A stretch of DNA of 63,890 nt, filler included, from Xylographa opegraphella (GCA_022813865.1; 3 parts of 3 records of this genome joined end to end with filler, not necessarily neighbours in it); one strand, 5' to 3'. Shown: positions 5,105 through 61,012, counted from the first letter of the whole stretch. Notes: generated by a model not told the origin, from the letters alone. Made by a program: numbers and translations.

Positions 5105-8100
5105 AGTATAATTTACTATATAATCGAGAAAGTCTAAAAGTATTTTAGTAAATAACGAAACTTAATTATATAACATATATATATTTTTTATATATTTTAT
5201 AAATATCTCCGCGACAGCCTTTTATTTTTTTAATAAATTTTAAATATCGAAGCATTAATTACTCAAGTATTATTATATTAAAATAAAAAATTATTAAAAA
5301 TTTCGTTTAATTTTATTGTTATTTTATTAATATAAACTTTTGAATCAGTACTGTCGTATAGCGGGTCAAAAAATTAGGACGTTTTTAAAATTTTATTCAA
5401 ATAATTTTTAATCTATAATAAAATTCAAGACTTAAAATTTTAATCAATAAATATAAAAAATAATTTCGAACGAAATTTACAAACGTTTTAATAAAATAAA
5501 GCTCGAATATTATACGCGTATAAAAGTTTAAAAATAGATAAATTAAAAAATATTAATAATAGTTTATTAAAATAATAGGATTTTATTTCACGAATATGTT
5601 ATAATATTATTTTAAATTTTAGATAGAAAAATACTACAGAAATTTTAATATAAATATAAATATAATAACGAAAGTTTAATATTATAATTTAGTTACAGCT
5701 CGAACCAATTAATTCGAGAGTTTATTAATTTTTTTAATTTTTTTTAAATAATATAATATAAAAAGACCAGGTCGTTTATATTACTTTTAAATTAAAATTA
5801 TCGAGTAAAATAGTAATTATACTATAGTTAGCTACTTTTGTTTAAATTATTTGTAAAATACGCTATTTTTGAGCAAATCGTACTTTGAATAAAAATAAAT
5901 TTAATATTAATAAATAATACGTTCGACAAAAAGCAGATAATACGTAAACGCGAAAAAATAAAAAAATAATTTCAATATTAATATTATTTAGTTAAGGGAA
6001 TAGTTTTTTTTACAATATAAACGTTTAATAAATAACGAACGCGATTATCGATGAAAAAATAATTTATATAATATATATAAATTTATTCAATATTTCGTTA
6101 ATAATTATAATATAAAGCCAAATAATTTTTCTGCGAGAAACGCTTCGCCGCGAAAGTAAAAACACCGTAAAAATACTTTTTTAATTTTAAATAATTTATA
6201 TTTAATAATTTTAATTAATTTATATTTAATAATTTTAATTAATTTATATTTAATAATTTTAATTAATTTATATTATTTTACTATTGAAATCTATACGTAA
6301 AGAATTATTTTAAAATGTTTAATTCATTGCGACGCAACGGCAAATTTTATTTTATATATATAAATTAATATATAAATTTTAAAGCTAATAAACCTAATAG
6401 CTCCCGCAGTTTAAAATTAAAAATTATAAATAATTATCATTTTATAATTATAAACCTTAAGGTAATTAAATACGAATAATTTTTTCGAGTATTAATTTTC
6501 TTAAAATACAATATCATTTTCGAGCTGTTATAAATTTATAGAAAAATAATTCGAAAATCGATTAAAAATCTCGAAATATTTTATTATAAAAAATCTTTTT
6601 ATTAATATTATTTATAAAAGTGAATATCGTACTACGTATTTTAAAATTTAACAATATAATAATAATAATATAAATCGGCGAACTCGATATCAAACCGTTT
6701 ATATTTTTTAAAAAATATATAAATTTCGTAAATATTTTCAGCGAATTTAAAATAGCTATATTATTTAAATATCGTTTTAAAATCGGTTATAAATTCTAAT
6801 ATTTATCAAATAATGTTTTTTGGTTTTTTATACAATTTCTTTAAATTAAAATTTTAAATATTGAAAGCTTATATCGATACGAATTTTGTAATAAAATATA
6901 TTAAAAAATTTATAAATTTAATAAACGCATTAATTCTTTTCGTACAAAAAAATAAAATTTTAAATTTATATATTAATTACCGCGGTTTAAATATAATTAT
7001 GATAAAGAATAAATACTTTTTGATTTTTAAATTAATCAATCGATTGTCGAAAGCTTGAAGTTTTATGCGTTTAAATTTAATCACGATATTTAATTTAATT
7101 CGAATTTAACGTAATGAAAAATGAATAACGGCGTTTTGAACGCGATATAAAAATTTCGAATATCATATTATATTTTTTTATTTTTATAATATTTTAGAAA
7201 TATTTTAATTATATATCGATATTATTTTACGATCGATAATTAATAAAACGACAATTGCGTATTTTAACAATATTTTAATATTTTTAAACGATTTTAAAAA
7301 TTACGTAAGAAACGTAAAAAGATATTCAATTTATTATATGAAAATGATTTTTATATAAAACTTTTAAAGTATTTATTTAATATTACATTTATTAATTTCT
7401 TAAAATTTGTAATTTTTACGTTTAATATATATATAAATCTTTTTCGAATTACTACGATATCGAATTAGCCCGTATCAGTATATTTAAAAAAATTTAATTT
7501 TTTTTAAATTTTACGAATTTTTTATTATAATAAAATCGCCAAAATTATAATCGATTTAATCAAAGAAATATTTTTTGTTATAATTATAGCAGCGCTGCTC
7601 GTATTTAAAAAAATTAAAAACGATATTTTGAGAAGTATTCTTTATTTTAATATTGTTTTTTTAAAAAAAATAACGTTTTATATATTGCGACGCAAGCTAT
7701 TTCGCGATTATAATTTTTTTAAAAGTAAAAAAATTAATATCGATATTTTATTCTATTTTATTTAAAAAAAAATTAATTGTTTTTAAGCTAAATTATATTA
7801 TAAAAAATAACGAACTTTTAAATATTATAGCAGTTTTTAAGGCCTGGAAACATTATTTTAAAAGCGTAAAAAAGTAAATTATAATATATAACGATTATAA
7901 TAATTTACGTACGTTTAATGTTATAATAAATTTATCGCGGCGATAAACGCGATAAATAAAATAATTTCGTTAATTTTAATTTCGTAATGTTATATATATT
8001 TAGTAAATTAAATTTAGCTAACGCACCCTTACGACGCGCGAATTATATAATTAATTTTATATTCAAAAAAGTTTATATTGTAACTTATTGTTACGATTCT

Positions 8101-8504
8101 GCTTCTCACTAGTATAGTTCGAATCGGGATCTGAGTTGGATTCGTCAATGAATGAATAGGAAGGCACAGTAACAGTTTAATTCTCCAAAAGTAATAATTT
8201 TCGTATAAAAGGTTTGTATTGAAGCCTATTATCCTAAGATTATAATATAAGTTGAACACGTCTTTTACAATAAAGGAAATCCTTCGCTTTATATAGAAGT
8301 CATGTTCTAAGATGACTCCCATGCCTTTCAAGGAGGCCACTGAGGCTAAGGGGTTACTCCTTCTATGCCTTTTACGGAGGCAGAGGAGGCAGCCGAAATA
8401 AGGTTCCTCCGACCCTTGTTCTACACAATATTGGTTAAAACCTTATCACTAGCTCCCCCCGCCAGATTCTTGCTCCGAGAGGATTCCAGCAGCTTTTCTG
8501 CATC

Positions 8505-9016
8505 ATGCCAAAGCACAAATTAACCAGCGTTCATCGCCGAAAAGTTCAGTCGCGAAGCATTTACGACAAAGGAAAATTCACGATGCATTCTTACGATTGC
8601 TGTATTAAGGAGTGTTCTTTTTGCGCCGTTTCTTTAAAGTCAGAGTTTTGCGCGAACTGTATCGAAGCTAAGGCCGATATTTTTTGATTGTTACCGAAGC
8701 CGATCGTCGTGATTTAAAAAAATAAAAGTATAAAGTAAAGCGTCGAGTGATTAAGTTAATAGAGGCTCTAGGCCGAGAGAAACGTCGGCTCCTTGATATC
8801 AAGGACAAGGAACGGGAGATGTTTCAACGCGAAATATTTAATATCGCGGCCCTGGAAGATGATGAGCGCCGAGAGGCAGAAGCCTCTACCAGCGGTTTCT
8901 GTGGGGTCCTTTCTCCTTCTCTTCTTTCTCCTGGGACTTTGGAAGCTCCTTCTTCTGAGATTCTTGCCCTGCTTGGTGATACTGTTGAAGAATTTCCCGG
9001 CAGTTCCCAAGGCTAG
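8505..9016 (+). pseudogene. Antisense extra ORF of the chromovirus: Zn2Cys6-like cluster plus charged helical region
   Basis: ORFs 8505-8687 and 8747-9016 join through a 1-nt frameshift near 8673 and one RIP-type TAA. Cysteine spacing is discussed in the findings. Confidence 0.6.
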
Positions 9017-9125
9017 TAAGTGGTTCCCAAGTGTTGTCCGATTCTGGGTATCCTTTCTATTTAACTAAATAGTTCTGACCTTGCTTATTCAGAATTATTT
9101 CTACCTTAGATTCCTGTTCTTCTTC
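8975..9125 (-). pseudogene. Chromodomain at the integrase C-terminus of element C
   Basis: Minus strand reads EEQESKVEIILNKQGQNYLVK*KGYPESDNTWEPLTSLGNCREIL, with TGG changed to TAG. This is the YLVKWKGY...NTWEP chromodomain motif. Confidence 0.9.
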
Positions 9126-12100
9126 CTTATTATATTGAAAAATTGTTTATACCGGGGTACTGGCGTCCGCAGATTCCAACAAGGATATATAGAACACTGG
9201 GTGTACTCTCGCATCTTTTGGCAGGTCGAGGAGGTAGTTGATTAATCCTTTGATTTATTTGATTAAGAATGGTCCGACCTTGACATAATCGAGTTTCTTG
9301 CTTCGATTTTTGCTAATTGTTAGATTTTTTGTAAAAAGGTATACTTTATCCCCCTCCTTTAGCTAAAATTTATTCTTGGTACTTTTATATCTTTTCGCAG
9401 CAACATTTTTGTTGCTTTGATCAATTTTCCTTAATAACGCCTCATGCGTTGTTTTCAAGTCTTTGGCTAATATTATTACTCTGTTTGTATTAGGTCCTGG
9501 CCTTCTGTTTTTAAACATTTATAAATGGTGTCCTTTGTTTACGAAAAAAGGCGACATCCCTGTTGTTACAGACTGCTTGTCGTTTAGTGCCAGTTGTTTT
9601 AAAAGCAATAATAACACTCAATTATTTTGTTTCGAATTTTAAAAGTGTTTTAGGTACACTTTCAAGCTTTGATTCATTCTTTTAATTAATTTATTTATTT
9701 ATGGATGATAAATTATTGACATTTTTAGTTTAACTTCTAGTTTAAACATTAAGGTTTTTTAGAAATTAAATATAAATAATTTGTTTCTATCGAAAGTTAT
9801 TCCAGCTGGGAAACTATGATCTTTTACAAATTTGTTTAATAAAAGGAAAGCCAACTGTTTTATTATAAATATTTCTTTAAAGGGTATAATAATGGAGTAC
9901 TTTGTAAGTTTATCTATAAGTACCATTATTGAGTTATACTTTAATCCTGTAGTTGGATTCTCTGACTTTGGCAATTTCGTAATAAAGTCGATCAAAATCT
10001 GTTCCCATGGTTTATTTAGTATTTCTAAAAATTAAATGTTTCCATATACTGCGTGTCTTGTTGATTTGTTTTTCTAACACAGTATGCATTTCTTAATATA
10101 TTCCTCCACATGTTTTCTTATGTATAGAAATTCATAGTTTCTTTTTATAAGTTCCATCGTTTTGATAACTCCTGGATGGCCGTTGACCGGTCCATCGTAA
10201 TAATGTTTGATTATTTCTTCTGCTAACGACCCCGTTAAATCTTTTATAATCGTTTTTATCTCGAAAGCTGCGATCTGCCTCGTAGAAATAAAAGCTCCAC
10301 TGCTATCTTTTTTAAACAGGGCCCCATTCATTGATTCTTTATTTATAAGGTCTCTTCTTCTGCTGAATACATTTACTCTTCCATTGTCTTTGCCTGGTGT
10401 ATATATAATCTTGAATTTATACTATTTTAATAGTTCTGCCCATCGTACTTGTTTTTTAGAGTATTTTTGTCGTAATAAAGCTTAACAGATTTTTGTAGTC
10501 TATATAAATAGTAAGATTAAAACAGTTTTTTACAGACACTTTTCAGTTTTGAATAAATATTATTATAGCAAGTAGTTTTTTATCGTAAATATCATAGTTT
10601 TGTTCTGCTTGTAATATCTTTTTTTTAAATAATATGCAATTAAATGCCATTTCCCATCTTGCATTTACAATAGGCATGCCTTTATGGCTAGGTTTAATAC
10701 GTTTGTTTCTATTCTGACAGGTTCTTTTACTTGGAATGTCATTAAAATTGGTAGTTTTGCACAATTTTTTTTCAGAATATTAAGGGCTCGTTGTTGATCC
10801 GAATCCCATTTGAAGCTCACAATTTTATATATTAAATTCGTTAAGAGTATCGCCTTTTTGGAATAATCTTTGATAAAAGTTCTATTAAAGTTTGCAAATC
10901 CTAGAAATTTTAGAACCTCCTTTGTTATTATTGATTAAGGCCATTCAAGTATGGCTTTTATTTTCTTTAAATTTATCTTGATTCCATTTTTGCTGATTAT
11001 AAATTCTAAGAAAATTACCTCGTCTTTGCTAAATTCATATTTTTCTAGTTTAAGAAGTAACTCTGTTTTTCCCAAGCATGTAAGTACTTCCTGTACATAT
11101 TTTATATATTCTTTTACTAATTCCGAGTAAATAAGTATGTCGTTTAAATAGATTATTACTGTTAAATCCAAGTATACCTTTAATACGTTGTTGATCAGAG
11201 TTTAATAAATAACAGATGTATTAATTAACCCAAAAGGCATAATTTAGTACTTATAGTATTTATATCTGCTTCAAAATACAGTTTTTCATTGCTTTTCTTC
11301 TTTTATTTTAATTAGGTTGTATGCGCCCCTAAGAATAAACTTGGTAAAAACCTTGGCTTTGTCAAGTTTATCTTGCATGTTATTGATTTTCGGTAGCGAA
11401 TATGGATTTTTAATGGTAATATCGTTCAAATTTCGATAATCGATGCAAGGTTTCAAACTTCCGTCTTTCTTAGGTACAAACATTATAGAATATTCTGCTA
11501 AGGATTTTGATTCGTGTATAAATTCTTTCTTCAGGCTTTCGTCAATATATTTACAAAACTCCTGAAGTTCTCTTTTTAATATATTATATATAGATTTAAA
11601 TATTGACTCCTTTCCTGGTTCGAGATTAATCTTACAGTCCCAAGATTGATATTTAAATAAAGTATTGAGTTCTTACTTTTCCCAAAAAAGCCATATTCAT
11701 GCTTTATATTTTTTAGGAATGTCAAAAGATGCGTTGCTTTTTTTAAACTTTAATTTAATTCGCTCTGCTAACCCTTACTAGTGCGTATCGAGTCGAACTC
11801 TCGAGTAAAATCGTTTTTATTTAAAAATAAAATTTCCATAATCTCGATCGATTTTTAATTTTTTTTTATTTATTATCGTTCTCTGCCGATGTATAGAATA
11901 TATATCAATAACGCGATTAATATATTTCTTGGTAAATACTCCTTTATTCTAATCTAGGAATATATTGTGCTTGATCCACCAAGATAAATTTAGAATAATA
12001 TAGTACCTGGCCATAATAATTATATCAAAGACTATCTCTTTATAATGTTAATGAATAGCGACAGAAAACGGCCTTGTATATCGTTTCCCCCCCTTTTTTA

Positions 12101-12557
12101 ATGACCCGTCGGCCATTGTTATTTGAATCTGATTTAAAATTGATAATTCGAAGCTACAGCTTTTCGCGAAAGTGCTGAACATATAATTTAAATTGACTTT
12201 AATGTTTAATAATGCGATTGTTCGATGCCCGTTTATTATAATCGAAATCTTTTAAAAATTTATATAATTTAGTTCTTTCCAGCGTATCTTGAGGTATATT
12301 ATAATAATCTTTATATATTTCCCTTTAATATATAGGATTATTTTTTCCCTATTCGAGGTAGCCGTGAATTTCTTTAATTTCTATATATATTATATATTTC
12401 CTCTAGAAATATTATTATTATAACGAATTCCCGTAGTCGCTTCTTTCTGAACGAGTTTCGTATATAATTAAATTATGGCAGAATTCTTGCGTATATCCTG
12501 GAAAGTTTAAATATTTTCGTTTTTCTTTTAAATATCAAGGGCATTTATCTTTAAGAT

Positions 12558-12787
12558 TGTTACGGCTCGCTATCTCACCCGAAAAGCAGGCCTAGAACCA
12601 CAGCTATAGGTGAGCGATTTCAACCTAGAATAATACAAGGAAGCAAGTTTAGTAATACACGTAGAAGTTAAAATAAACAGTGCTAACGCCAGGCTCCTAA
12701 CCGCTTTCGAACTAGCCTGAGTCCCGGACGCGCTTTAGTCCCGTTCCGTCTATCACTTATTAAGGTGCCATGTAACACGCCGTTACA
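12558..12787. mobile_element. Solo LTR, family A, nested in element C
   Basis: TG...CA ends and AAGAT TSD (12553-12557, 12788-12792). Confidence 0.93.
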
Positions 12788-14679
12788 AAGATATTTATTC
12801 CAAATTTAAATTCCATAGCAGGCTTTACCTGTGTGGCCATTATACTTATAATCTTTTTAGTAAATCTTGTAGTAAACGTTTGTACAAGCGCTATAATGCA
12901 TTATATAATAACGTGGGTATTCTGGGTTTACTTGATAATTCTAATTCCCTTTATTTAATATATTTCGGCATTTTTGGCTCGACAGTTTTTTTGTAGATTT
13001 AATTATTGGGATTATTTGGCTCGATTTTTTATTCCTTGGGGTCTTTCTCGATTCGCAGGCTATTAATGTTTAAATCGCTTTTTCCGTTGTTAATAATTTT
13101 TATTTAAAGACTATTTTTTAATGCTAAATGTTATTCTTGCTAATACTGACCTAATTATTTAAAATTAAGGTAAGTTTCGTATTTTTCTCCTTATATAAAA
13201 ACAGCTGTTTGTCTTCCTTTTTAAACTTCGATTTTATCGGAAATTTTAAATATATATTTATCTATGGTTTAGGCACCTTGTTCTTTGACCGACAGTTTTT
13301 CGCAATATAATCGATCTTTTTACATACGTAATAAATAATCCCTGTTTTCTTACCCCGTAAATGCTGTTTCCCAAACCCCTACTTTTGCTTTTGAAACACA
13401 TCGATCTCTATTGGTATTGGTCCATAAGGGTTTGGCGTTTTATATAATCTTTCCTTTGTTTTAAAGTCGTTTTCTTAATAATCAGTTCTTGTCGTACCTC
13501 CGGTTTCGTGTCTGCGTTCCATGGCCTTTTTATATAATTTATTATCAATTTTAAGCATACTTCGATCATTTAATTCATAGTTTTAATTGCGGTACCAGTT
13601 CTTATTAACTCATTTTTTACTAAGTCTTTAAGTCCCTTTCGGTACATTACAATTAAAGCATCGTCGTTCCATTCAGTCTGTATCGCAAACTGTTAAAATC
13701 GAGTCGAGTGTTTTATACAAAATCCTTTTTATTTAAGATTTTATATGATTCGTATTGTCGTATTCTTTTCGTTTAATAGTTCGAAAACTCTTCGAATTTC
13801 GACCTTAAAGGTTGCAAAGCTTCTTAACTAATTGGAGTCCGTATCGTCAGGGTTCTCGAGATGTTTCTTAAGATAAAGGGTAATCCATTTCCAAGCTTGT
13901 CCTCGTATGTACGTAATAGCGAAGAGTGACTTTTTCAGCTCTGGGATGCTGTTCCCCTGGATCCCAAAGAACAGGTCCATCTATATAAGCCAGTCCTCTA
14001 GGTGGTCCCTATCTCTTTTATATTTATTAGATCTCTCTACCTTAACGCGATTATTTTCTCCTGTAATATCTCTTCTGTTGCCTTCTGCAATACTTGGGGG
14101 TAAATTTGGTTGTGCTCCTGATACACTTATCTTGAAAATGTTCAAAGTGTTACGATCCTGCTTCTTATAAATATAATTCGAATCGGGATCTAGGTTGGAT
14201 TCGTCAATAAATAAATAAAAAGATACAGTAACAGTTTAATAATTCTTTAAGAATAATAGTTTTCGTACAAAAAGTTTATATTGAAGCCTATTATTCTAAG
14301 ATTATAACATGAGTTGAATACGCCTTTTATAATAAAGAAAATCCTTCATTTTATATAGAAGTCATGTTTTGAAATGCCTCCCATGCCTCCCAAGGAGGCC
14401 ACTAAGGTTAAGGGGTTACTCCTTCTATGCCTTCTACGAAGGCAGAGAAGGCAGCCGAAATAAGGTTTCTTCGACCCTTGTTCCACACAACATTGATTAA
14501 AACCTTATCACTTATTTACGTAAAGATTTTTATAAAAATTTTAATTTTTTTTAACTATATATCAATAATAATATAAAACGTTAAGGAGTATTTAATCGCG
14601 ATATTTAATAATATATAAATTAATTTGTCGTTTTAAATTAAATAGTTATTATTAAAAAAAATAAAATTCGTTTCGTAAT

Positions 14680-14862
14680 TGTCACGGCTCATCAACTCAC
14701 CACGCAAGCACGCCTAGAACGTAAGCTTTAGGTGGACGATTTCAACCTAGATTAAGATGGAGAAGCGGTGAGGCTGCTCCATGGGCGAGANTATATACTA
14801 AAGGTGCTAGTCCTGATCCAGCCCGACCCCTATTACCTGTGACTGATGTCATAGCCGTCACA
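14680..14862. mobile_element. Solo LTR, family B, nested in element E
   Basis: TG...CA ends and GTAAT TSD. Confidence 0.93.
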
Positions 14863-15598
14863 GTAATTATAATATCGACGATATATTTAAATCTTATTAT
14901 TCGCGATGGCATACTATTTTTTAAAAATAATAAAAATAATATTTTATTTGCGCTATGAAATTACATTTTGAAAAAATATTATAATACTTTAATAGCGAAA
15001 TATTTCGAAATAACGAGAATATTTTATTTTATTAATATATATCATTACTAACTCAAATTAAAGATTTTATTCGAAATTTTATAAAAATGTGTAATATATA
15101 TTAAAGAATAAAGATGCCTCGGGTAATATCGAACAGATAATTGTAATTGTTATTTATGTTTGGGCCAGTATTTTAATTAACATAATTATAAAATTTGTAC
15201 GTTTTATATTCTCGGCCGATAAAAACTATAATTTAAAATATAATTCGATAATAATCGTAGTTGATAAATTAAATAAAATTATTTATTTTATTTTATATTA
15301 CATTAAAATAAACGCGGCTTAATTCGAATATTTAATAATTAAAGAAATTTTTAAGTATTATATAATTTTGAAATCATATGTAAGCGATAAAGGCGTTTTA
15401 TTTATATTAAAATTTGAAAAAATATTATTCGAAATACTAAAAATTAAATCCAAACTGTTAATAATTTATTATTTTTAATTCGATAAATAAATTAAAAGAT
15501 ATAATTAAATAGTAAAACAATATTTACGGGTTTTTATAAATTAAAATTCAAACGATTAAGCGGATTATTTATCGCTGGCTAAATATATATATAATAAT

Positions 15599-15830
15599 TG
15601 TAACGGCGTGTTACATGGCACTTTAACAAGTGATAGACGGAACGGGACTAAAGCGCGTCCGGGACTCAGGCTAGTTCGAAAGCGGTTANNNNNNNNNNNN
15701 NNNNNNNNNNNNNNNNNNNNNNNNNNNNNNNNNNNNNNNNNNNNNNNNNNNNNNNTATTCTAGGTTGAAATCGCTCACCTATAGCTGTGGTTCTAGGCCT
15801 GCTTTTCGGGTGAGATAGCGAGCCTTAACA
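15599..15830. mobile_element. Solo LTR, family A, opposite orientation to the 12558 copy
   Basis: Reverse complement of 12558-12787 with an internal N gap, and ATAAT TSD. Confidence 0.9.
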
Positions 15831-18800
15831 ATAATAGTATTAATATATTTATAAAAATATTACTTTGTTCGGAAAAAAAGGATAATATTAACGACTATAG
15901 ATAATAATAAATATTGAAATTAACGAAATGTTAAGAAACGCTATAATTTACGCGAAAAATATTAAAAAATATTACTAAAAATTAAAATATATAATAAAAA
16001 CCGTACAGAAAATTTAAGCAAAATATTATAATAAATATTATTTTTTAGTAAAATTTAAAGAAAACGACTTAAAATTTTTTTTAAAAAATTAGAATATTCG
16101 AACAACACGTTTATCAAAAAATTTAACGATCGATATTTCGAACTATTTCGAATTATTAAACGTATTGAAAAATAAATTTATAGATTAAACCTTTTGAATA
16201 TATATAAAATTTATAATATTTTTACCCAAAACTGTTTAAACTGCGGGAAATAAATACGCGATCGTTAATTATTTTATTTTTTATTAAAATAATAAATAAA
16301 AACGAATTATATTAAAAGTTTATTATCGAAGAAATAATATAATTAAAATCTATTAAACGTAGATTTAAATATATTAAACGTAGATTTAAATATATTTATA
16401 AATAATAAAATTATAAAAATACTACCATCGAGTTAGTAAAAATTATCGAGGAAAACGCGTCGTTATTAATAAAAAACATTTATAAATTTTTTTTTGCCCC
16501 AGGCCTTTTGCTTAATAAATAATTATTCAAATTTTTATAAATAATTTATTGATTTATATTTCGTTTGTATTTATATTCTATTAATAAATATACGTTACGT
16601 TCGTATTATATTTATTATTTTATATTTTATTTATATTCGTAAATTTTTATATTACGTTTGTATTCGCGAAGTTTTATTTTATGTTTATAATAGCTATTTT
16701 TATATTTCGTTTATATTTATATTATATATTACGATTATAAGTATTTCACGTTATATTTATATAAAATTTTAAATCTTTTTGAGGCCAAAAAGCATAGAAA
16801 AGGGGAAAATATTATAAGGCGTAAAATTCGAAATGGCGTTCGATCTGCCTGTTTATTTATTTATTTATCGATTTGTATTTTAAGCATAATTTTGGACTGC
16901 TTGCATCCTGGGCGTAACTTCTCGTTTAAAAAGCTTAATATATATATAATTAAAACTTGCGATTTTAAACGGTTCCCTCCTTAATTTTAACTTAATAAAT
17001 TAAATACGTATTGTATTTTGAGTTCAAACCTTGCATTTTATAGTCGCCTGGCAGAATACTCTTTATATTGTTCAAAAATAATATAAACGTTAATTTATTA
17101 TTAAATTAACGTAGTCGTTAAATTAAAGTAGCCGTTAAGTTAACATAATAATATATAAAGAAATATTTTTTTACGTATTTTAATAAATAATTTAACAAAG
17201 TATTAATTTTATTATATTCATTTTATTTCTTTATTTCAATTGATTATAAACTCGAGTTTGCGCAACGATTGAAATAAATAATTTTAGAAAATAATTTAAT
17301 ACTTGAAAACTTATTATAAATATTTATTACGCATTTTTTATAATAAAAATAAATAAATAAATATATATTAAACGGCTTTTATTACGTGTTTTAAATAAAT
17401 AAATAAATTTTATGATTATTCATTACGCGATTTCTTTAACAAAAATAAATAAATCTTTCGTAATTCAAAAGTTTACGATATTCGCGGTAGTTCATTAAGC
17501 GGAATTAATATATATATATTTTTATTAATATTCAATACGATAATAAATATTCTTTTAATAATATTTTTTTATCGCGAGTAAAATTATATATTATTTAAAA
17601 CAATTCCATTTTAACTTGTTCGTAAACAGATTAAAATTTAATAAATAATGTTATATATTATAATTATATGTTATGATTATATATTATAATTTTACTTATT
17701 TATTTTCTACGAAAGATTTGTCGTTATAAATTTTATTAAATTTCATAGTTTTAAGCATTTTTTATGCTAATAAAAATAAATTATTTTTAATAATTTGTTT
17801 TCGTTAAAAGTTGTTTTATATTTGAATACATATTTTGTATAATCGAGTAAATAATTAATGTTTACGCTATAATTATTTTTATATTTGAAAATATTATTTT
17901 AATTAATAACTTAATTACTTTGGTATTTAAAATCTTTAAAAAATAATTTAAATTTTTATAATTATATTTAATAACGATAAATGGGCTAAACAAATCAAAA
18001 ATAACGTAAAGGCGTATTATTAAATAATTATTTATATCGATGATATCGATTAAAAACGCGTATAAAAGTTTATAACGATTAAAATAAATAAAATTTATTA
18101 AAGCGTAAATATACGTATTTTTTATTAATTATTAAAAATTCAATTTAATTACGATTAAAGAAGCCCGAATATATTTATAAAAAAATTAAAAAATTAATTG
18201 TAACATAAACTTTTTATTCACGGTTATTTTCGATAATATTAAAAAAACTAACTATTTTTGAATTCGTTTTTGGAAAAATATAAAATAGTTAAAAATAATC
18301 TTGATTTACGAAAAATTTATAATAATGAACTTTTTTATTAAATTATTAAACAAAATTTATTCTAAAGTTTTAAATAATGTCGCGTTTTAAAGCAATATCC
18401 CGTTTTAAAGCAAATAAAATAACCGCGAAAAAAAGAATAAAAATAGTAAATTTTTATTATTAAAAAAATTATTTAACCTCGAACAATCGAAATTTTATTA
18501 TAATAAATTGAATAAATACATTTTTATTAAAAAAACTATCGCTTAATAAATTATAATTAAATTTTTTTCGTTAAAAAGTTAAATAATTCAAAATAATTAT
18601 ATAACTTTTTGAATGTAAATTATTAATAAAAATGAAAAATTATAAAAAAGATCGAAGTAAAAATCTTCGCGAATATAACGCTAAAAACTAATTAAATAAT
18701 AATAAATTAACGAATTTTAAACTTAATTTTAAAAATAAAGCGATCGAAACTGTCGTTTTTCTTTAAATTTTTATTAGTAAATTTTTTAAATTCGATTAAA

Positions 18801-28192: not shown

Positions 28193-28272
28193 CCTGTGCC
28201 TAGTGATTAGTTTCAATATAAAAAATATTTTATTAAACAACGTTATTTTTAATATTTTTACTCGATGTTTAT

Positions 28273-28503
28273 TGTTACAGCTCGCTATCTCACCAGAAAA
28301 GCAGGCCTAGAAACTCAGCTATAGGTGAGCGATTTCAACCTAGAATAATATAAGGAAGCAAGTTTAGTAATACACGTAGAAGTTAAAATAAACAGTGCTA
28401 ACGCCAAGATTTTTAACCGTTTTCGAATTAGCCTGAGTCCCGGACGCGCTTTAGTCCCGTTCCGTCTATCACTTATCAAGGTGCCATGTAACACGCCGTT
28501 ACA
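28273..28503. mobile_element. Family A LTR without a matching TSD
   Basis: Homologous to 12558-12787. The flanks TTTAT and ATTTT differ. Confidence 0.88.
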
Positions 28504-29680
28504 ATTTTTATAGTATTAAACTTTTTTTAACTATATATATTTTTATTATTAATATATATATATAAAATAAAATTGTTTTTTTCGTTTTCGACAATCGTTC
28601 GATTCATTTTCGCTTTAATTTAAAATTCGTTTAAATTACATTTCAAATAATTCTTTAATTTAAAAACATTATAAAAAACTTCGATAAATTTTTTTAAAGT
28701 CATAGGAACTTGCGAATCGTATAATTAAATAAATTTGAACAGAATAAAATTAAAGATTAAAGATTAAAAAAGTAGCGAATCGATAATTTAATTATTTTGA
28801 ATAATATTTTATAATAAAAATTAATTATAAAAAATAATTAAAATAATTTAAAATTAATAATTTCTTTTTTAAACGAAGCGAACTGACGCTTACGAAAAAA
28901 AGAATTATTAAAATTATAAATATTTTATTACCAGTTATTTTAATCTAATTAAAATATAAATTATATTTTATTAATTGATCAGTTTTTAAATTTATTATAA
29001 TATTTATATACAAAATAACGAAAATATTTAATCGATAAAAATAAAAATTAATAGTTTAATTAATCGTGATTTAATTATTTTCGTAGTGATTTAATTTTTT
29101 TTAAAATTCAAAATAATTTTAAAATAACTAAAATCGTTTTAAATTAAAACCCTGGTCCGTTTCGATTGGAACGCCGCTAAAAAATAATTAATTAAATAAA
29201 ATTTTAAAATAAATTTAAGACCGGCGAAAACTAAGTTGCTAAATCTTTTTAATGAAATTTACTTATAAATATCTACCTTACGCTTGCAGCCAAGAATTTG
29301 TATGAAAGTTTGATTGGAGTTGCGACTGGGTACCTTAGTAAGACACAGATTCAGCCCTAATTGGTTGATAAACGGTGGGCGGCCCGACTCTTAGCGTTGA
29401 CACAGTATAGATGTGGAACGATTGTACAGCTGGCTAAAGCGCAAGGCATTGAACCTCACTTGAATCTACCTTACCGAGGTGCTTCACGGCGCACGGCGCT
29501 AAGGTAAGCTGCGACTTGTAACTATAACAAGTCTCAAGTACTCCCAGGTCCGACAGTGACAGCGCAGAAATAGTTCGCTCCTCAAGGGGCTTCACACTTG
29601 GCAGGGCATGAATGCCTGGAAGGAAGAAGTAGCTCACAGTAACACCTTGTTCTTACAAATTACTTCAGCACGAGAAAAGT

Positions 29681-55694: not shown

Positions 55695-55918
55695 TGTTAT
55701 GGCTCATCAACTCACCACGCAAGCACGCCTAGAACGTAAGCTTTAGGTGGACGATTTNNNNNNNNNNNNNNNNNNNNNNNNNNNNNNNNNNNNNNNNNNN
55801 NTTAATTAATTAANNNNNNNNNNNNNNNNNNNNNNNNNNNNNNNNNNNNNNNNNNNNAGGTGCTAGTCCTGATCCAGCCCGACCCCTATTACTTGTGACT
55901 GATGTCATAATCGTCACA
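55695..55918. mobile_element. Two family B LTR halves on either side of an artificial spacer
   Basis: B start at 55695 and B end at 55918. The flanks GGACT and ACTGA do not match, so these are probably different copies. Confidence 0.75.
55758..55857. other. Artificial contig-join spacer (N44-TTAATTAATTAA-N44)
   Basis: Same structure as 28033-28132. Confidence 0.95.
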
Positions 55919-55920
55919 AC

Positions 55921-58900
55921 TGATAAAATTCTGATGCCTCCCTGAGGAGGTATAAAAGGCGTGACCCTTTACCTTGATGGCCTCCCTCGGGAGGCATAGA
56001 AGGCATTTTAAAACAGAATTTTTATATAAAATAAAGAATTCCCTTTATTGTAAAAAACGGTATTCAACTCATATTATGATCTTAGAATAATAAGCTTCAA
56101 TATAACTATTGATACGAAAACTTTTACTTTTAGAAAACGATTAATTTATTACTATGCCTTTTTATTTATTTATTAACGAATTTAACCCAAATTCTTAATT
56201 AAACTATATTAGTGAGAAGTAAAATCGTAACATTTTGAATATTTCAAAATAAATATATTAAAAACACGATCAAATTCAACCCTAAGCGTTGCAGAAAGCA
56301 ATAAAAGAAATATTGTAAAAGAAAACGATCGTATCAAGGTAAAAAAAACCGATAAATATAAAAAAAATAGGGATCACCTAAAGAACTGGCTTATACAAAT
56401 AAATATATTCTTCGAGTTTCAGGGGAACAGTATCTCAGAACTCAAAAGATTCCTCTTCATTATTATATATATACGAAAACAAGTTTAAACATAAATCGCC
56501 TTTTATTTTAAAAAAAACATTTTAAAAACCTTAACGACGAAAACTTCAGATGATTAAAAAACTTTGCGATATTCAAAATCGAAATTAAAAGAATTTTCGA
56601 ATCATCGAATAAAAATATATAATAATATAAATCATATAGTATTTTAAGCAAAAAGAATGTTATATATCATATTCGACTCATTTTAACAATTTGCTACTCA
56701 GACTGAATAAAACGACGACGTTTTAATAATAATATATCGTAAAGGATTTAAAAACTCGATAAAAATAAATTATTAAAAACTGGTGCCGTAATCGAAACTA
56801 TAAATTAAATAATCGAAATATATATAAAAATTAGCGATAAACTGTACGAAAGGGCTATAAAACGCAGATACGAAATCGAAGATATAATAAAAACTAATCA
56901 TTAAAAAGGCGACTTTAAAGCAAAAAAAAATTATATAAAACGCCAAACCTTTATAAATCAATATCAGTAGAAATAAATATATTTCAGAAGCAAAAGCAGG
57001 GATTTAGAAAATAACACTTACGGGGTAAAAAAACAGAAATTACCTATTACGTATATAAAAAAATCGATCACATCGTTAAAAACTGTCGATCAAAGAACAA
57101 GATGTTTAAACCATAAATAAATAAATATTTAAAATATTTAATAAAGTCGAAACTTAAAAAAAAAGACAATTAACTGTTTTTATACAAGGAAAAAAATACG
57201 AAACTCACTTTAATTCCAAGCGACCAGGTTAGTACCAACAAAAAATATAAAAAAGTTAAAATCAACACTCAGTACAGGGAAAATAGCCCTTGGGTGCAAA
57301 TCAACAATAATAAAAAACGATTTAAATATCAGTAATTTGTAAATTAAGGAAATCCCGAGAAATAAAATATCGAGCTAAACAATCTCGAAAACTGAATTTA
57401 TAAAAAAATTAACGAGCCAACAACGCCGATAAAAACCAGGAAAATAAATATGTTATGAAATTATCAAGTAAATTCGAAATATTTATATTATAATTTAATG
57501 CATAATAATGCTTGTACAAACACGCACTGCAAGATTCATTAAAAAATTATAATTATAATGGTTATGTAGGAAAGGTCTATTGTAGTATTTAAATTAAAAA
57601 TAAATACTTTAAGAATAAGTACCCTCGACACCTTCGAGAAAACCGAAAATATTTATATTTTGCAGAATATACACGAGAATTTTATAATAATTTTATTATA
57701 TATAAAGCCCGCCTAAAAAAAGCAACTGCGGAAATTCATTATGGCAATAGTATTTTTATAAATAATATATACTATAAATAAAAATTCAAGAAATCCACGG
57801 CTATCTCGAACAGGAAAAAAAATTATATATTATAAAAAATATATAAAAATTAATATAATATACTTTAAGATATACTGGAAAAAATTTAACTATATAAATT
57901 TTATAAAAATTTCGATTAAAATAAATAATCATCGAACAACCGCATTATTAAATATTAAAATCAACTCGAATTATATATTTAATATTTTCGTAAAGAGCTG
58001 CGACTTCAAGTCTTTAATTTCAAAATAGGTTCAAATAATAATAGCCGACGAATTATTAAAAAACTGTATATTAAGCCACTTTTTATAATTATTTATTAAT
58101 ATTATGAAAGAATAGTCTTTAATATAATTATCATAGCCAGGTACTATATTATTCTAAATTTATTTAATGAATCAATGTTAAGGTTCTCACCTTCACAGGG
58201 TAGGGCTAAGACACTAGGGGACTAGCGCCCGGTCGAGAGACGGCCCGACCCCATGCCCCTTTCGCCCCTCGCGCCCCTCAGGGGGCATCGGGGGCACCAG
58301 GGGGCGCCTCAGGAACAGGACTTCTATATAGAGTGGAGGATCTCCTATGTTGTAGAAGGCGTGTTCAACTCATGTTATGATCTTAGACTACTATACAATA
58401 CTGTACGAAGACTATTAGACTGGAGCATTAAGACTGCATCGTGACTTCCTATCTACTCATTGACGAATCCAACCCAGATCCCTAATCGAACTATACTAGT
58501 GAGAGGCAGGATCGTAACAATCAAGTACAACGTGTTTCTGAATTAAAAAAAATTTATCAAAAAATTATATTAATCGTGTTATTAATATACATTTTATACA
58601 TTAATAAAGAACGATAGTAAATAAAAAAGATCGAAAATCGAAAATCGATCAAGATTATAAAAATTTTATTTTTAAATAAAAACGATTTTAATCGAGGGTT
58701 CGACTCGTATCGCATTAGCAAGGGTTAACAAAACGAATTAAATCAAAGTTTAAAAAAAAGCAACGCATCTCTTGATATCCCTGAAAAATATAAAACGTAA
58801 ACATGGTTTTTTTAGAAAAAGGAAGGGCTTAATACTTTATTTAAATATTAATCTTGGGACTGTGAAATCAACATTGAACCAGGGATGAAGCCAACATTTG

Positions 58901-60061
58901 AATTTATATACAATATATCAGAAAAACAACTTCAAGAGCTTTGCAAATATATTCATAAAAATTTAAAAAAAGATTTCATACGCGAATCAAAATCCTTAGC
59001 AGAATATCCCGTAATATTTATCTTTAAAAAAGACGAAAGTTTAGAACCTTGCATTAATTATCGAAAATTAAAGGATGTTATTATTAAAGATCGATACTCT
59101 CTAACGAAAATCAGCGAAATACGGAACAGACTCGGCAAAGCAAATTTTTTTATCAAATGTAACCTTAAAGGCGCATATAATTTAATTAAAATACAAAAAG
59201 GTAAGGAATGGAAGACTGTATTTCGAAGCAGATATAAATATTATAAATATTAAATTATACCTTTTGGGTTAATTAATATACTAGCTACTTATCAGGTATT
59301 GATCAACAACGTATTAAAGGCATATTTAAATTTAACAGTAATAATTTATTTAAACGATATATTTATTTACTCGAAATCAGCAAAACAATATATAAAATAT
59401 ATACAAAAAATATTTATATATTTAGGAAAAACAGGATTACTTTTTAAATCAAAGAAATATAAATTCAGCAAAAACGAAATAGTTTTTCTAGGATTTATAA
59501 TTAGCAAAAACGAAATGAAAATAAATTTAAAGAAAATACGAGTTATACTCGAATGGCCTTAATCAATAATAGTAAAAATTTTTTTTAAATTCCTAGGATT
59601 TACAAACTTTAACAGAACTTTTATTAAAGATTACTCAAAAAAGGCGATACCTTTAACGAATTTAATATATAAAAATGTGAGCTTTAAATAGAATTCAAAT
59701 CAATAACGAGCCTTTGACATTTTAAAGAAAAATTGTACAGAGCCACCAGTTTTAATAATATTCCAGGTAAACAAAATCTGTAAAAATAAAGACAGACGCT
59801 TCAAACTTAGCCATAAAGTATTTTTATTATAAATATAAAACATGAAATGGTATTCTATTACATATTATTCAAAAAAGATATTACAAGCAAAATAGAACTA
59901 CAACATCCACGATAAAAAATTACTCGTTATAATAATATTTATTTAAAATTAAATAGTATATGCAAAAAGTTGCTCGGAACTTACTATTTATATAAACTAT
60001 AAAAATCTATTGAGTTTTACTACAATAAAGGTATTCAACAGAAGATAAATACGATAGATAA
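55921..60061 (+). mobile_element. Family C Gypsy element: 5' LTR (55921-56232), gag, protease, RT and RNase H; 3' part missing
   Basis: RT fragments at 58885-59253 and 59299-59562. Colinear with the reverse complement of ~10440-14510. Confidence 0.9.
58176..58519 (+). mobile_element. GC-rich solo LTR related to family C, with a different U3
   Basis: TG...CA ends and ATCAA TSD. The 3' half matches C LTRs. Confidence 0.92.
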
Positions 60062-60244
60062 TGTTATGGCTCATCAACTCACCACGCAAGCACGCCTAGA
60101 ACGTAAGCTTTAGGTGGACGATTTCAACCCAGATTAAGATNNNNNNNNNNNNNNNNNNCTCCATGGGCGAGACTATATACTAAAGGTGCTAGTCCTGATC
60201 CAGCCCGACCCCTATCACCTGTGACTGATGTCATAGCCGTCACA
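60062..60244. mobile_element. Family B LTR joining two different C copies, no TSD
   Basis: Flanks are GATAA and ACTAT, and there is an internal N gap. Confidence 0.85.
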
Positions 60245-61012
60245 ACTATATAATTCGTATTGCCATATTCTTTTTGTTTAATAGTTCGAAAATTCTTTTA
60301 ATTTCGATTTTAAATATCGCAAAATTTTTAAATCATTTCAAGTCTTCGTCGTCAGAATCCTTGAAATATTTTTTAAAATAAAGAATAATTTGTTTGTAAG
60401 CTTATTCTCGTATATTTATAATAACGAAAAATAATCTTTTTAATTCTGAAACACTATTCTCTCAAAACCCAAAGAATATATTTATTTATATAAATCAGTT
60501 CTTTAAATAATCCCTATTTTTTTTATATTTATCGATTTTTTTACTTTAACGCGATTATTTTCTTTTATAATATTTTTTCTATTGCTTTTTATAATATTTA
60601 AAATCAAATTTGGTCGTATTTTTAATACACTTATTTTAAAAATATTTGAAGTATTACGATTTTATTTTCTATTAATATAATTCAATTAGGAATTTAGGTT
60701 AAATTCGTTAATAAATAAATAAAAAAATACAGTAACAGATTAATCGTTTTTTAAAAGTATTAATTTTCGTATAGTATTTACATTGAAATCTATTAATTTA
60801 AAATCATAATATAAATTAAACACGTTTTTTACAATAAATAAAATCCTTTGTTTTATATAAAAGTTTTATTTTAAAATATTTTTCATATCTTCTAAAAAAG
60901 CTATTAAGGCGAAGGGGCCATGTCTTTTATACCTTCTGAGAAGGCAAAGGAGGCACCCGGAATAAAGTTCTCCCGACTCTTGTTTCACACAACATTGGTC
61001 AGAACCTTATTA
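60245..61012 (-). mobile_element. Family C 5' LTR (60652-61012) plus gag fragment
   Basis: Colinear with ~13740-14510 but more degraded. Confidence 0.85.

Follow-up and report, generated by a model that had tools for sequence, protein, structure and literature searches.

Does a dead long terminal repeat (LTR) retrotransposon of Xylographa opegraphella carry, on the strand opposite gag-pol, a gene of its own, and what kind of protein would such a gene have encoded? The question is raised by positions 8505-9016 of a stretch of 63,890 nucleotides from this fungus (GCA_022813865.1; parts of three records joined with filler), referred to throughout as the window, where an earlier note had described a broken antisense frame with the cysteine spacing of a Gal4-type zinc cluster. 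The explanation favoured here, with moderate confidence, is that the locus is the decayed accessory gene of an ascomycete Ty3/gypsy chromovirus, placed antisense between pol and the 3' LTR and encoding a proposed zinc-binding regulator. That the element carried a real and conserved protein gene is very probable in itself.

The frame opens on the plus strand with an ATG open reading frame (ORF) of 60 amino acids (aa; 8505-8687), whose ATG lies, as originally described, 57 bp inside the boundary of the 3' LTR (LTR end at 8448). Its parts can be listed as follows:
8505-8675, plus strand: piece 1, codons 1-57, with the conserved MPK start, a run of basic residues and positions one to five of the six-Cys module
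8592-8594, plus strand: codon TAC for Tyr30, where the homologue has Cys30
8661-8677, plus strand: frameshift interval with a 1-nt deficit (17 nt against the 18 of six codons)
8678-8722, plus strand: piece 2, TAT (Tyr) at the position of Cys59, followed by FLIVTEADRRDLKK, aligned with homologue residues 59-75
8723-8725, plus strand: in-frame TAA stop within the antisense gene
8726-9016, plus strand: piece 3, a basic and coiled-coil-like part and an acidic/Ser tail, ending with the stop TAG at 9014-9016

Piece 1 reads Y30 (TAC, 8592)-D-C32-C33-x3-C37-x2-C40-x8-C49-x2-C52. The earlier note had read C33-x6-C40-x8-C49-x2-C52 correctly and had left out Cys32 and Cys37. It had also placed a 1-nt frameshift near 8673, which is borne out by the 17 nt, rather than 18, that separate the Cys52 codon (8658-8660) from the TAT at 8678; another contig of the source sequencing run has 93 letters between 8587 and 8680 where the window has 92, which fits a 1-nt loss in the window copy, its exact place inside the stretch not being fixed. 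The R-Y at 8675-8680 lies in the frame of the 8747-9016 ORF, as claimed, but the TAA at 8723-8725 between them had been overlooked, and the apparent start at 8747 is a GTG picked mechanically by the ORF listing.

The strongest evidence for a gene is an intact homologue. A HMMER scan of the 60-aa piece 1 against 1,835,955,588 representative proteins (threshold E <= 0.001) returned a sole match, P0001, a protein of 177 aa (E 1.6e-5, 43% identical, residues 1-58 aligned to 1-58). P0001 is unnamed, uninterrupted and collinear with all three window pieces, and the reading of these pieces as one gene of about 170 codons is supported. The two align as follows:
P0001 residues 1-57 with window 8505-8675: 25 of 57 identical, BLASTP E 8e-15
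P0001 residues 59-75 with window 8678-8722: aligned
P0001 residues 86-177 with window 8738-9007: 38 of 97 columns identical, E 6e-14

A tblastn search with P0001 united 8684-9007 in one high-scoring segment pair (HSP), and both the MPK start and the ...PGSS end are common to P0001 and the window gene. The cysteines of P0001 (C30, C33, C40, C49, C52 and C59) are spaced C-x2-C-x6-C-x8-C-x2-C-x6-C, with x6 between Cys52 and Cys59; the corresponding positions in the window are TAC (Tyr), Cys, Cys, Cys, Cys and TAT (Tyr). This is exactly the arrangement that had been proposed by reverting two TAY codons to TGY, and P0001 has Cys at both sites; the two Tyr codons probably reflect G-to-A changes in TpG context (TGY to TAY), of the type produced by repeat-induced point mutation (RIP). 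The lack of a continuous ORF, or residues other than Cys at these sites in better-preserved copies, had been named as grounds for giving up the idea, and P0001, a natural relative, has both the continuous frame and the two cysteines. The proposed total of about 170 aa, with a coiled-coil-like stretch and an acidic/Ser tail, is likewise matched by the 177 aa of P0001, its confidently predicted long helix and its tail of this kind. Over six frames and 63.9 kb, the window has a single stop-free C-x6-C-x5-12-C-x2-C pattern, the one at the antisense gene.

The state of the locus might instead suggest a chance open frame antisense to a decayed element, with no gene behind it. The frame is broken in three ways if the Tyr codons are counted, and its last 131 nt lie antisense to pol, where open frames can arise without selection. 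Against this, the intact homologue keeps the start, the end and all six Cys positions; the match was found at E 1.6e-5 among 1.84 billion proteins, with pairwise values of 8e-15 and 6e-14; and 43% identity excludes P0001 as a spurious ORF of a near-identical element. The best-conserved part of the gene lies outside pol (~380 nt, 8505-8885), and amino-acid conservation there cannot stem from pol and therefore indicates protein-level constraint. A chance frame is extremely improbable. On sequence grounds, the antisense frame is a real, conserved and now pseudogenised accessory gene.

The window copy of this gene is an inert pseudogene within a dead element, the features of which are as follows:
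8089-14510, minus strand: Ty3/gypsy chromovirus, complete single insertion, dead, recognized by its LTR pair, flanks and pol domains
8084-8088 and 14511-14515: target-site duplication CTTAT, 5 bp, flanking both LTRs
8089-8448, minus strand: 3' LTR, TG...CA, element-sense end ...TATCA, upstream of the antisense gene on the plus strand
14148-14510, minus strand: 5' LTR, TG...CA, direct repeat of 8089-8448
~12299-8886, minus strand: pol in a single frame, stop codon at 8886-8888, given as a read-through translation (P0002) with X at stops
8973-9089, minus strand: chromodomain (Pfam Chromo, E 1.9e-9), residues 1071-1109 of P0002
8449-8463, minus strand: putative polypurine tract, GGCGGGGGGAG on the minus strand, adjoining the 3' LTR, as read from the sequence

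The presence of CTTAT on both flanks makes 8089-14510 one complete insertion, and the carrier is assigned to the Ty3/gypsy chromoviruses because its pol domains follow the reverse transcriptase-RNase H-integrase-chromodomain order in one frame (Pfam RVT_1, RT_RNaseH_2, Integrase_H2C2, SH3_Tf2-1 and Chromo). The element is heavily decayed in the manner of RIP, as had been noticed before: the LTRs are 86.3% identical, with 48 substitutions and three gap columns, and 45 of the 48 substitutions are transitions (18 G>A, 13 C>T, 9 T>C and 5 A>G). Decay is asymmetric between the two coding regions, pol having 31 stops per 1137 codons and no frameshifts, and the antisense gene one stop and one frameshift over ~170 codons, with two of its six Cys codons read as Tyr. 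The closest pol relatives, among the best 120 of 1372 matches with E <= 1e-10, are unnamed pol proteins at 44% identity; the few named ones are from the ascomycetes Aureobasidium and Beauveria. The antisense gene overlaps the end of pol by 131 nt (8886-9016). The earlier statement that its end overlaps the chromodomain holds for 8973-9016 only (44 nt), whereas the remainder of the overlap lies opposite the low-complexity tail of pol. By its position on the opposite strand, between the pol end and the 3' LTR (ATG 8505, stop 9016), the antisense gene corresponds to what is called an 'aORF-3R' in plant elements.

More decayed copies of the chromovirus family are present at 55900-61000, 73-82% alike and spanning gag to RNase H together with LTRs; all of them are cut off ahead of the integrase, chromodomain and antisense-gene part. 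The source-run contigs include numerous LTR variants in which 76-161 nt of the interval 8158-8457 are skipped.

Whether the gene belongs to the element lineage or was acquired by one of its members is a separate matter. Capture of a host gene or gene fragment by one element subfamily (transduction), with P0001 as a cellular gene or a separate capture, would account for the scarcity of source-run contigs over 8521-8952 relative to the LTR and pol, and for local GC and RIP indices that are genic-like: 8452-8890 has a GC content of 0.45 and a TA/AT ratio of 0.77, close to the values of 0.48 and 0.75 for gene-rich DNA elsewhere in the window, and is less AT-shifted than the remainder of the element. 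The DNA context of P0001 was not recovered, and transduced ORFs are described in passages of a review of antisense ORFs as occurring in one or a few copies (PMC7264820). Three properties of the gene speak against capture. P0001 equals the window gene in size, MPK start and PGSS end, so that the window holds no fragment of a larger factor; the gene end is woven into the last 131 nt of pol, an arrangement hardly achievable by recent capture; and the tail of P0001 fits an antisense chromodomain end better than at any other register and better than all 300 shuffled tails.

The last of these comes from a codon test of whether the strand opposite the P0001 tail, read in the same frame relation as in the window, could code for a chromodomain end; as a control, the window's own overlap was reproduced at 41 of 41 codons. 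The test covered the 55 of 120 pol matches with the WEP...xNC motif required by the pattern, the other 65 being left out. At the homologous register, the last 12 codons of P0001 fit xNCxxLLxx[FY][HR]x at a mean of 7.5 of 12 positions (range 3-10 over the 55 pol relatives); the window's own tail scores 6.4 in the same test. The best mean at other registers of P0001 is 5.07, with five of 9020 off-register tests reaching 8, and none of 300 shuffled tails reaches 7.5 (mean 3.54, maximum 6.31). This suggests that the P0001 tail also overlaps a chromodomain end in its source. Capture of a host gene is, on this balance, improbable.

A number of results nevertheless weigh against the gene being a regular part of the element lineage. 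The homology depends on a single protein: among proteins of 97-310 aa, P0001 retrieved itself only out of 181 candidates, and it forms a cluster of one member. The codon test may owe part of its outcome to ordinary homology between the two tails, and an unanchored codon-compatibility scan found no pol fit to share DNA with P0001 (best fraction 0.67, background 0.4-0.67). None of the best 120 of 1372 pol matches was placed on a contig as long as that of P0001 (8706 bp). Searches for P0001 loci confirmed none of 130 pattern matches in metagenome contigs, none of seven in viral contigs and none of 79 in prokaryote genome contigs, and degenerate DNA patterns for MF..E.FNI.ALE.DER had no matches in metagenome, genome or viral contigs. 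Counting source-run contigs at 80% likeness or more, few cover 8521-8952 (summed depth 167-517, at about 150 per contig), compared with 31-32 contigs at 8123-8134; most genomic relatives of the element may lack the antisense gene or be too diverged to count at 80%. Within the window, blastn of 8452-9300 found itself only, and the two tblastn HSPs of P0001 at E <= 10 both fall at the antisense-gene locus.

The uneven contig cover has a further aspect. The LTR end at 8089-8142 is covered by 31-32 source-run contigs, far above the internal 3' region, and LTRs of the family, or solo LTRs, therefore far outnumber the antisense-gene region. RNA runs were absent from those listed for the stretch, and two other sequencing runs that matched it yielded short pol-like pieces only. 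Piece 3 alone (96 aa) as a query kept none of nine candidates, and none of five window ORFs had an identical entry in the protein collection.

If the accessory gene is accepted, the nature of its product turns first on the six-Cys module. Zn2Cys6 proteins follow the spacing rule C-x2-C-x6-C-x5-12-C-x2-C-x6-8-C, and the cysteine spacing of P0001 falls within this family range. The two halves of the module are alike (C-x2-C-[IM]-E) and lie eight residues apart. Zn_clus (PF00172) is moreover the only Pfam family obtained for P0001 up to E 10. To this extent, the Gal4-type zinc cluster put forward in the earlier note is upheld by spacing.

Several lines of evidence count against its membership of that family. 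The Zn_clus match of P0001 reaches 11.5 bits (E 0.33) against a cut-off of 21, and it is misplaced, with P0001 residues 27-44 on profile positions 16-34, that is, the first half of the motif on the second half of the profile. Searches of all PDB sequences with phmmer and with a two-sequence profile returned no Zn2Cys6 protein up to E 10. In canonical Gal4-type clusters, the second Cys is followed by basic, DNA-contacting Lys/Arg residues, and a Pro stands two positions ahead of the fourth Cys. P0001 reads C33-IEKGLV-C40 and ...SDY-C49, and the window C33-IKECSF-C40 and ...SEF-C49; the two sequences have neither these basic residues nor this Pro. For window piece 1, Zn_clus gave no row up to E 10.

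The module possibly works like a binuclear zinc cluster and is not filed here as a Zn2Cys6 member. That it is a zinc-binding module of the binuclear-cluster kind is a plausible but tentative assignment, with the chances slightly short of even. Compared with Gal4-type Zn(II)2Cys6 proteins, such as Schizosaccharomyces pombe Pho7 (PDB 6e33), P0001 shares the cysteine spacing, the two similar halves, the N-terminal position, the basic linker and the long helix, but it differs in falling below the Pfam threshold with a misaligned match, in having no PDB sequence match and in a fold that is not confidently predicted.

Other candidates from these searches were set aside. Fn14 (E 0.011), the CBP ZZ domain, SH3 domains and coiled coils in the PDB searches were read as chance matches of Cys-rich or coiled-coil kind, and Pfam stn_TNFRSF12A for piece 1 (E 0.13) as another of this sort. 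Pho7 (6e33_A) was the single Foldseek row, with E 6.4 and a probability of 0.08, and its VIA-align Z was below 2.

The predicted architecture of the protein is clearer beyond the module. AlphaFold was run on P0001 with an alignment of four rows that included the window pieces, giving a mean predicted local distance difference test (pLDDT) score of 70. Residues 65-144 form one helix with pLDDT above 90, whereas residues 1-62 have pLDDT of 45-55, with low-confidence short helices at 31-36 and 50-54 that each begin at a C-x2-C. The intact form, a protein of about 170-177 residues as represented by P0001, comprises the MPK start, a basic N-terminus, the six-Cys module, a very basic stretch after the last Cys that leads into the helix, some 80 residues long, and the acidic/Ser tail, the last 40 or so codons of which overlap the pol end. 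Prediction of a complex of residues 25-146, with two copies and four zinc ions, scored 0.49, and one control 0.39. Language-model look-alikes, to be taken as leads only, are unnamed Ascomycota clusters of 122, 62 and 210 members, with whole-protein scores of 0.94-0.95; scores for residues 1-72 alone do not exceed 0.87.

A mechanism can be proposed from this architecture. The antisense transcript would start in or just inside the 3' LTR, as in the layout of human T-cell leukaemia virus type 1 (HTLV-1). The six-Cys module of the protein is predicted to bind zinc, two ions in the manner of a binuclear cluster being the likeliest number, and the long helix to pair into a coiled coil. The product would then enter the nucleus and act as a dimeric nucleic-acid binder regulating the LTR-driven transcription of the element. 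That the protein was a transcription regulator of the element is conceivable by analogy, though doubtful. A real element gene could also have had a product that is not a transcription factor, with a role in RNA binding or chaperoning, in nuclear import of the pre-integration complex or in protein-protein tethering. The order of a Cys module, a basic stretch and a long helix is that of dimeric DNA binders such as Gal4 and bZIP proteins, which argues against such roles. They agree with the want of canonical Gal4-type basic residues and the Pfam score below threshold, and accessory roles such as nuclear import are proposed in passages of the review of plant antisense ORFs (PMC7264820). A product of this kind is somewhat unlikely.

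In its boldest form, the regulator reading would hold that an ascomycete Gypsy lineage encodes a Gal4-like zinc-cluster coiled-coil factor, antisense and expressed from the 3' LTR, which binds CGG-type sites in the LTR (e.g. 8375-8395) and is a fungal counterpart of HBZ; this is unlikely. HBZ of HTLV-1 is a bZIP factor. It resembles the window gene in being an antisense gene by the 3' LTR with a product that combines a basic region and a dimerising helix, features that are predicted in the window gene's product, but it belongs to a human retrovirus, has no sequence relation to the window gene and is without a Cys module. An antisense promoter in the 3' LTR of HTLV is mentioned in the same review, which also discusses such a layout for plant antisense ORFs (PMC7264820, in part).

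A CGG-N15-CCG sequence is present in the 3' LTR at 8375-8395, inside the direct repeat GGAGGCAG/AGGAGGCAG; in the 5' LTR counterpart near 14437-14457, CGG reads CGA. It is, as speculation, a candidate site for a zinc-cluster dimer.

Were the factor reading true, the element would be a mobile source of a fungal-type DNA-binding domain together with its binding sites, and a product that is a transcription factor would reveal a means by which a retrotransposon of fungi governs its own expression or that of its neighbours. The locus provides a fungal antisense gene with a readable architecture, and the intact natural P0001 offers a protein that can be assayed for zinc content, dimerisation and binding of LTR DNA.

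The nearest known system by position is brtn, and the window gene could be a diverged homologue of brtn of the Boty-like (BcGypsy1) elements of Botrytis and Sclerotinia, an account that is compatible with the accessory-gene reading. The original description of brtn, from Boty-like elements of Botrytis cinerea, is reportedly that of Zhao et al. 2011, in Virology 417:248. Compared by description only, the two share a fungal chromodomain Ty3/gypsy carrier and an extra gene that in both cases is situated between pol and the 3' LTR, antisense to gag-pol (PMC8365987, PMC4227169 and PMC7264820, each in part). BcGypsy1 is stated to carry brtn (PMC8365987), a Boty-like element with brtn lies beside the abscisic acid (ABA) cluster (PMC4227169), and a Monilinia transcript matches BRTN at 63% (PMC5987419), according to the relevant passages of these papers. 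The descriptions in these passages differ from the window gene in mentioning no zinc-cluster-like motif for brtn, and there was no named protein among the matches of the window ORFs or P0001, the presence of BRTN in the searched libraries and length ranges being unconfirmed. Homology to brtn is unlikely.

More broadly, antisense ORFs between pol and the 3' LTR are listed, in the review passages, for maize Grande (gene23), rice RIRE2, Silene Retand, Phaseolus PvRetro13 and Boty (brtn), and the function of their products is there called open, none clearly resembling known proteins (PMC7264820). The plant aORF-3R genes resemble the accessory gene of the window in position, orientation and small size, and a regulatory role has been proposed for them, the Grande product being nuclear (PMC7264820, in part), but they belong to plant hosts and have no known homology to the window gene, which has the six-Cys spacing and the long helix. 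A figure legend shows certain Gypsy elements of fungi with 'additional ORFs of unknown function' (PMC2864245). Searches of the open-access literature found no fungal LTR element reported to carry an antisense gene of zinc-cluster-like kind.

The carrier element and its surroundings contain further repeats. A repeat of about 233 bp, resembling a miniature inverted-repeat transposable element (MITE) and bounded by imperfect ~12-bp terminal inverted repeats, ATTGTTACGGC...GCCGTTACAAT, lies in the gag-pol region of the element (12556-12788). Further MITE-like copies occur at 28271-28504, at 15598-15688 with 15756-15832, and at 1-62, and older ones near 14678, 22369, 27360, 55694, 60062 and 63827. 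The young copies, richer in GC than the DNA around them, are 94-98% alike, and the older ones 75-78%. The AT-rich block adjoining the element has a single N at 14791 and an N run at 15689-15756; the latter splits a MITE copy and is therefore a gap in the assembly with no biological meaning. A gene-rich island (44-54% GC) occupies 29000-55000, with AT-rich blocks (14-24% GC) on either side, and its long ORFs appear housekeeping-like by eye from their translations, including a Sec7-type exchange factor, a SYF1-like protein, a tRNA nucleotidyltransferase-like protein and a SAC-domain phosphatase-like protein.

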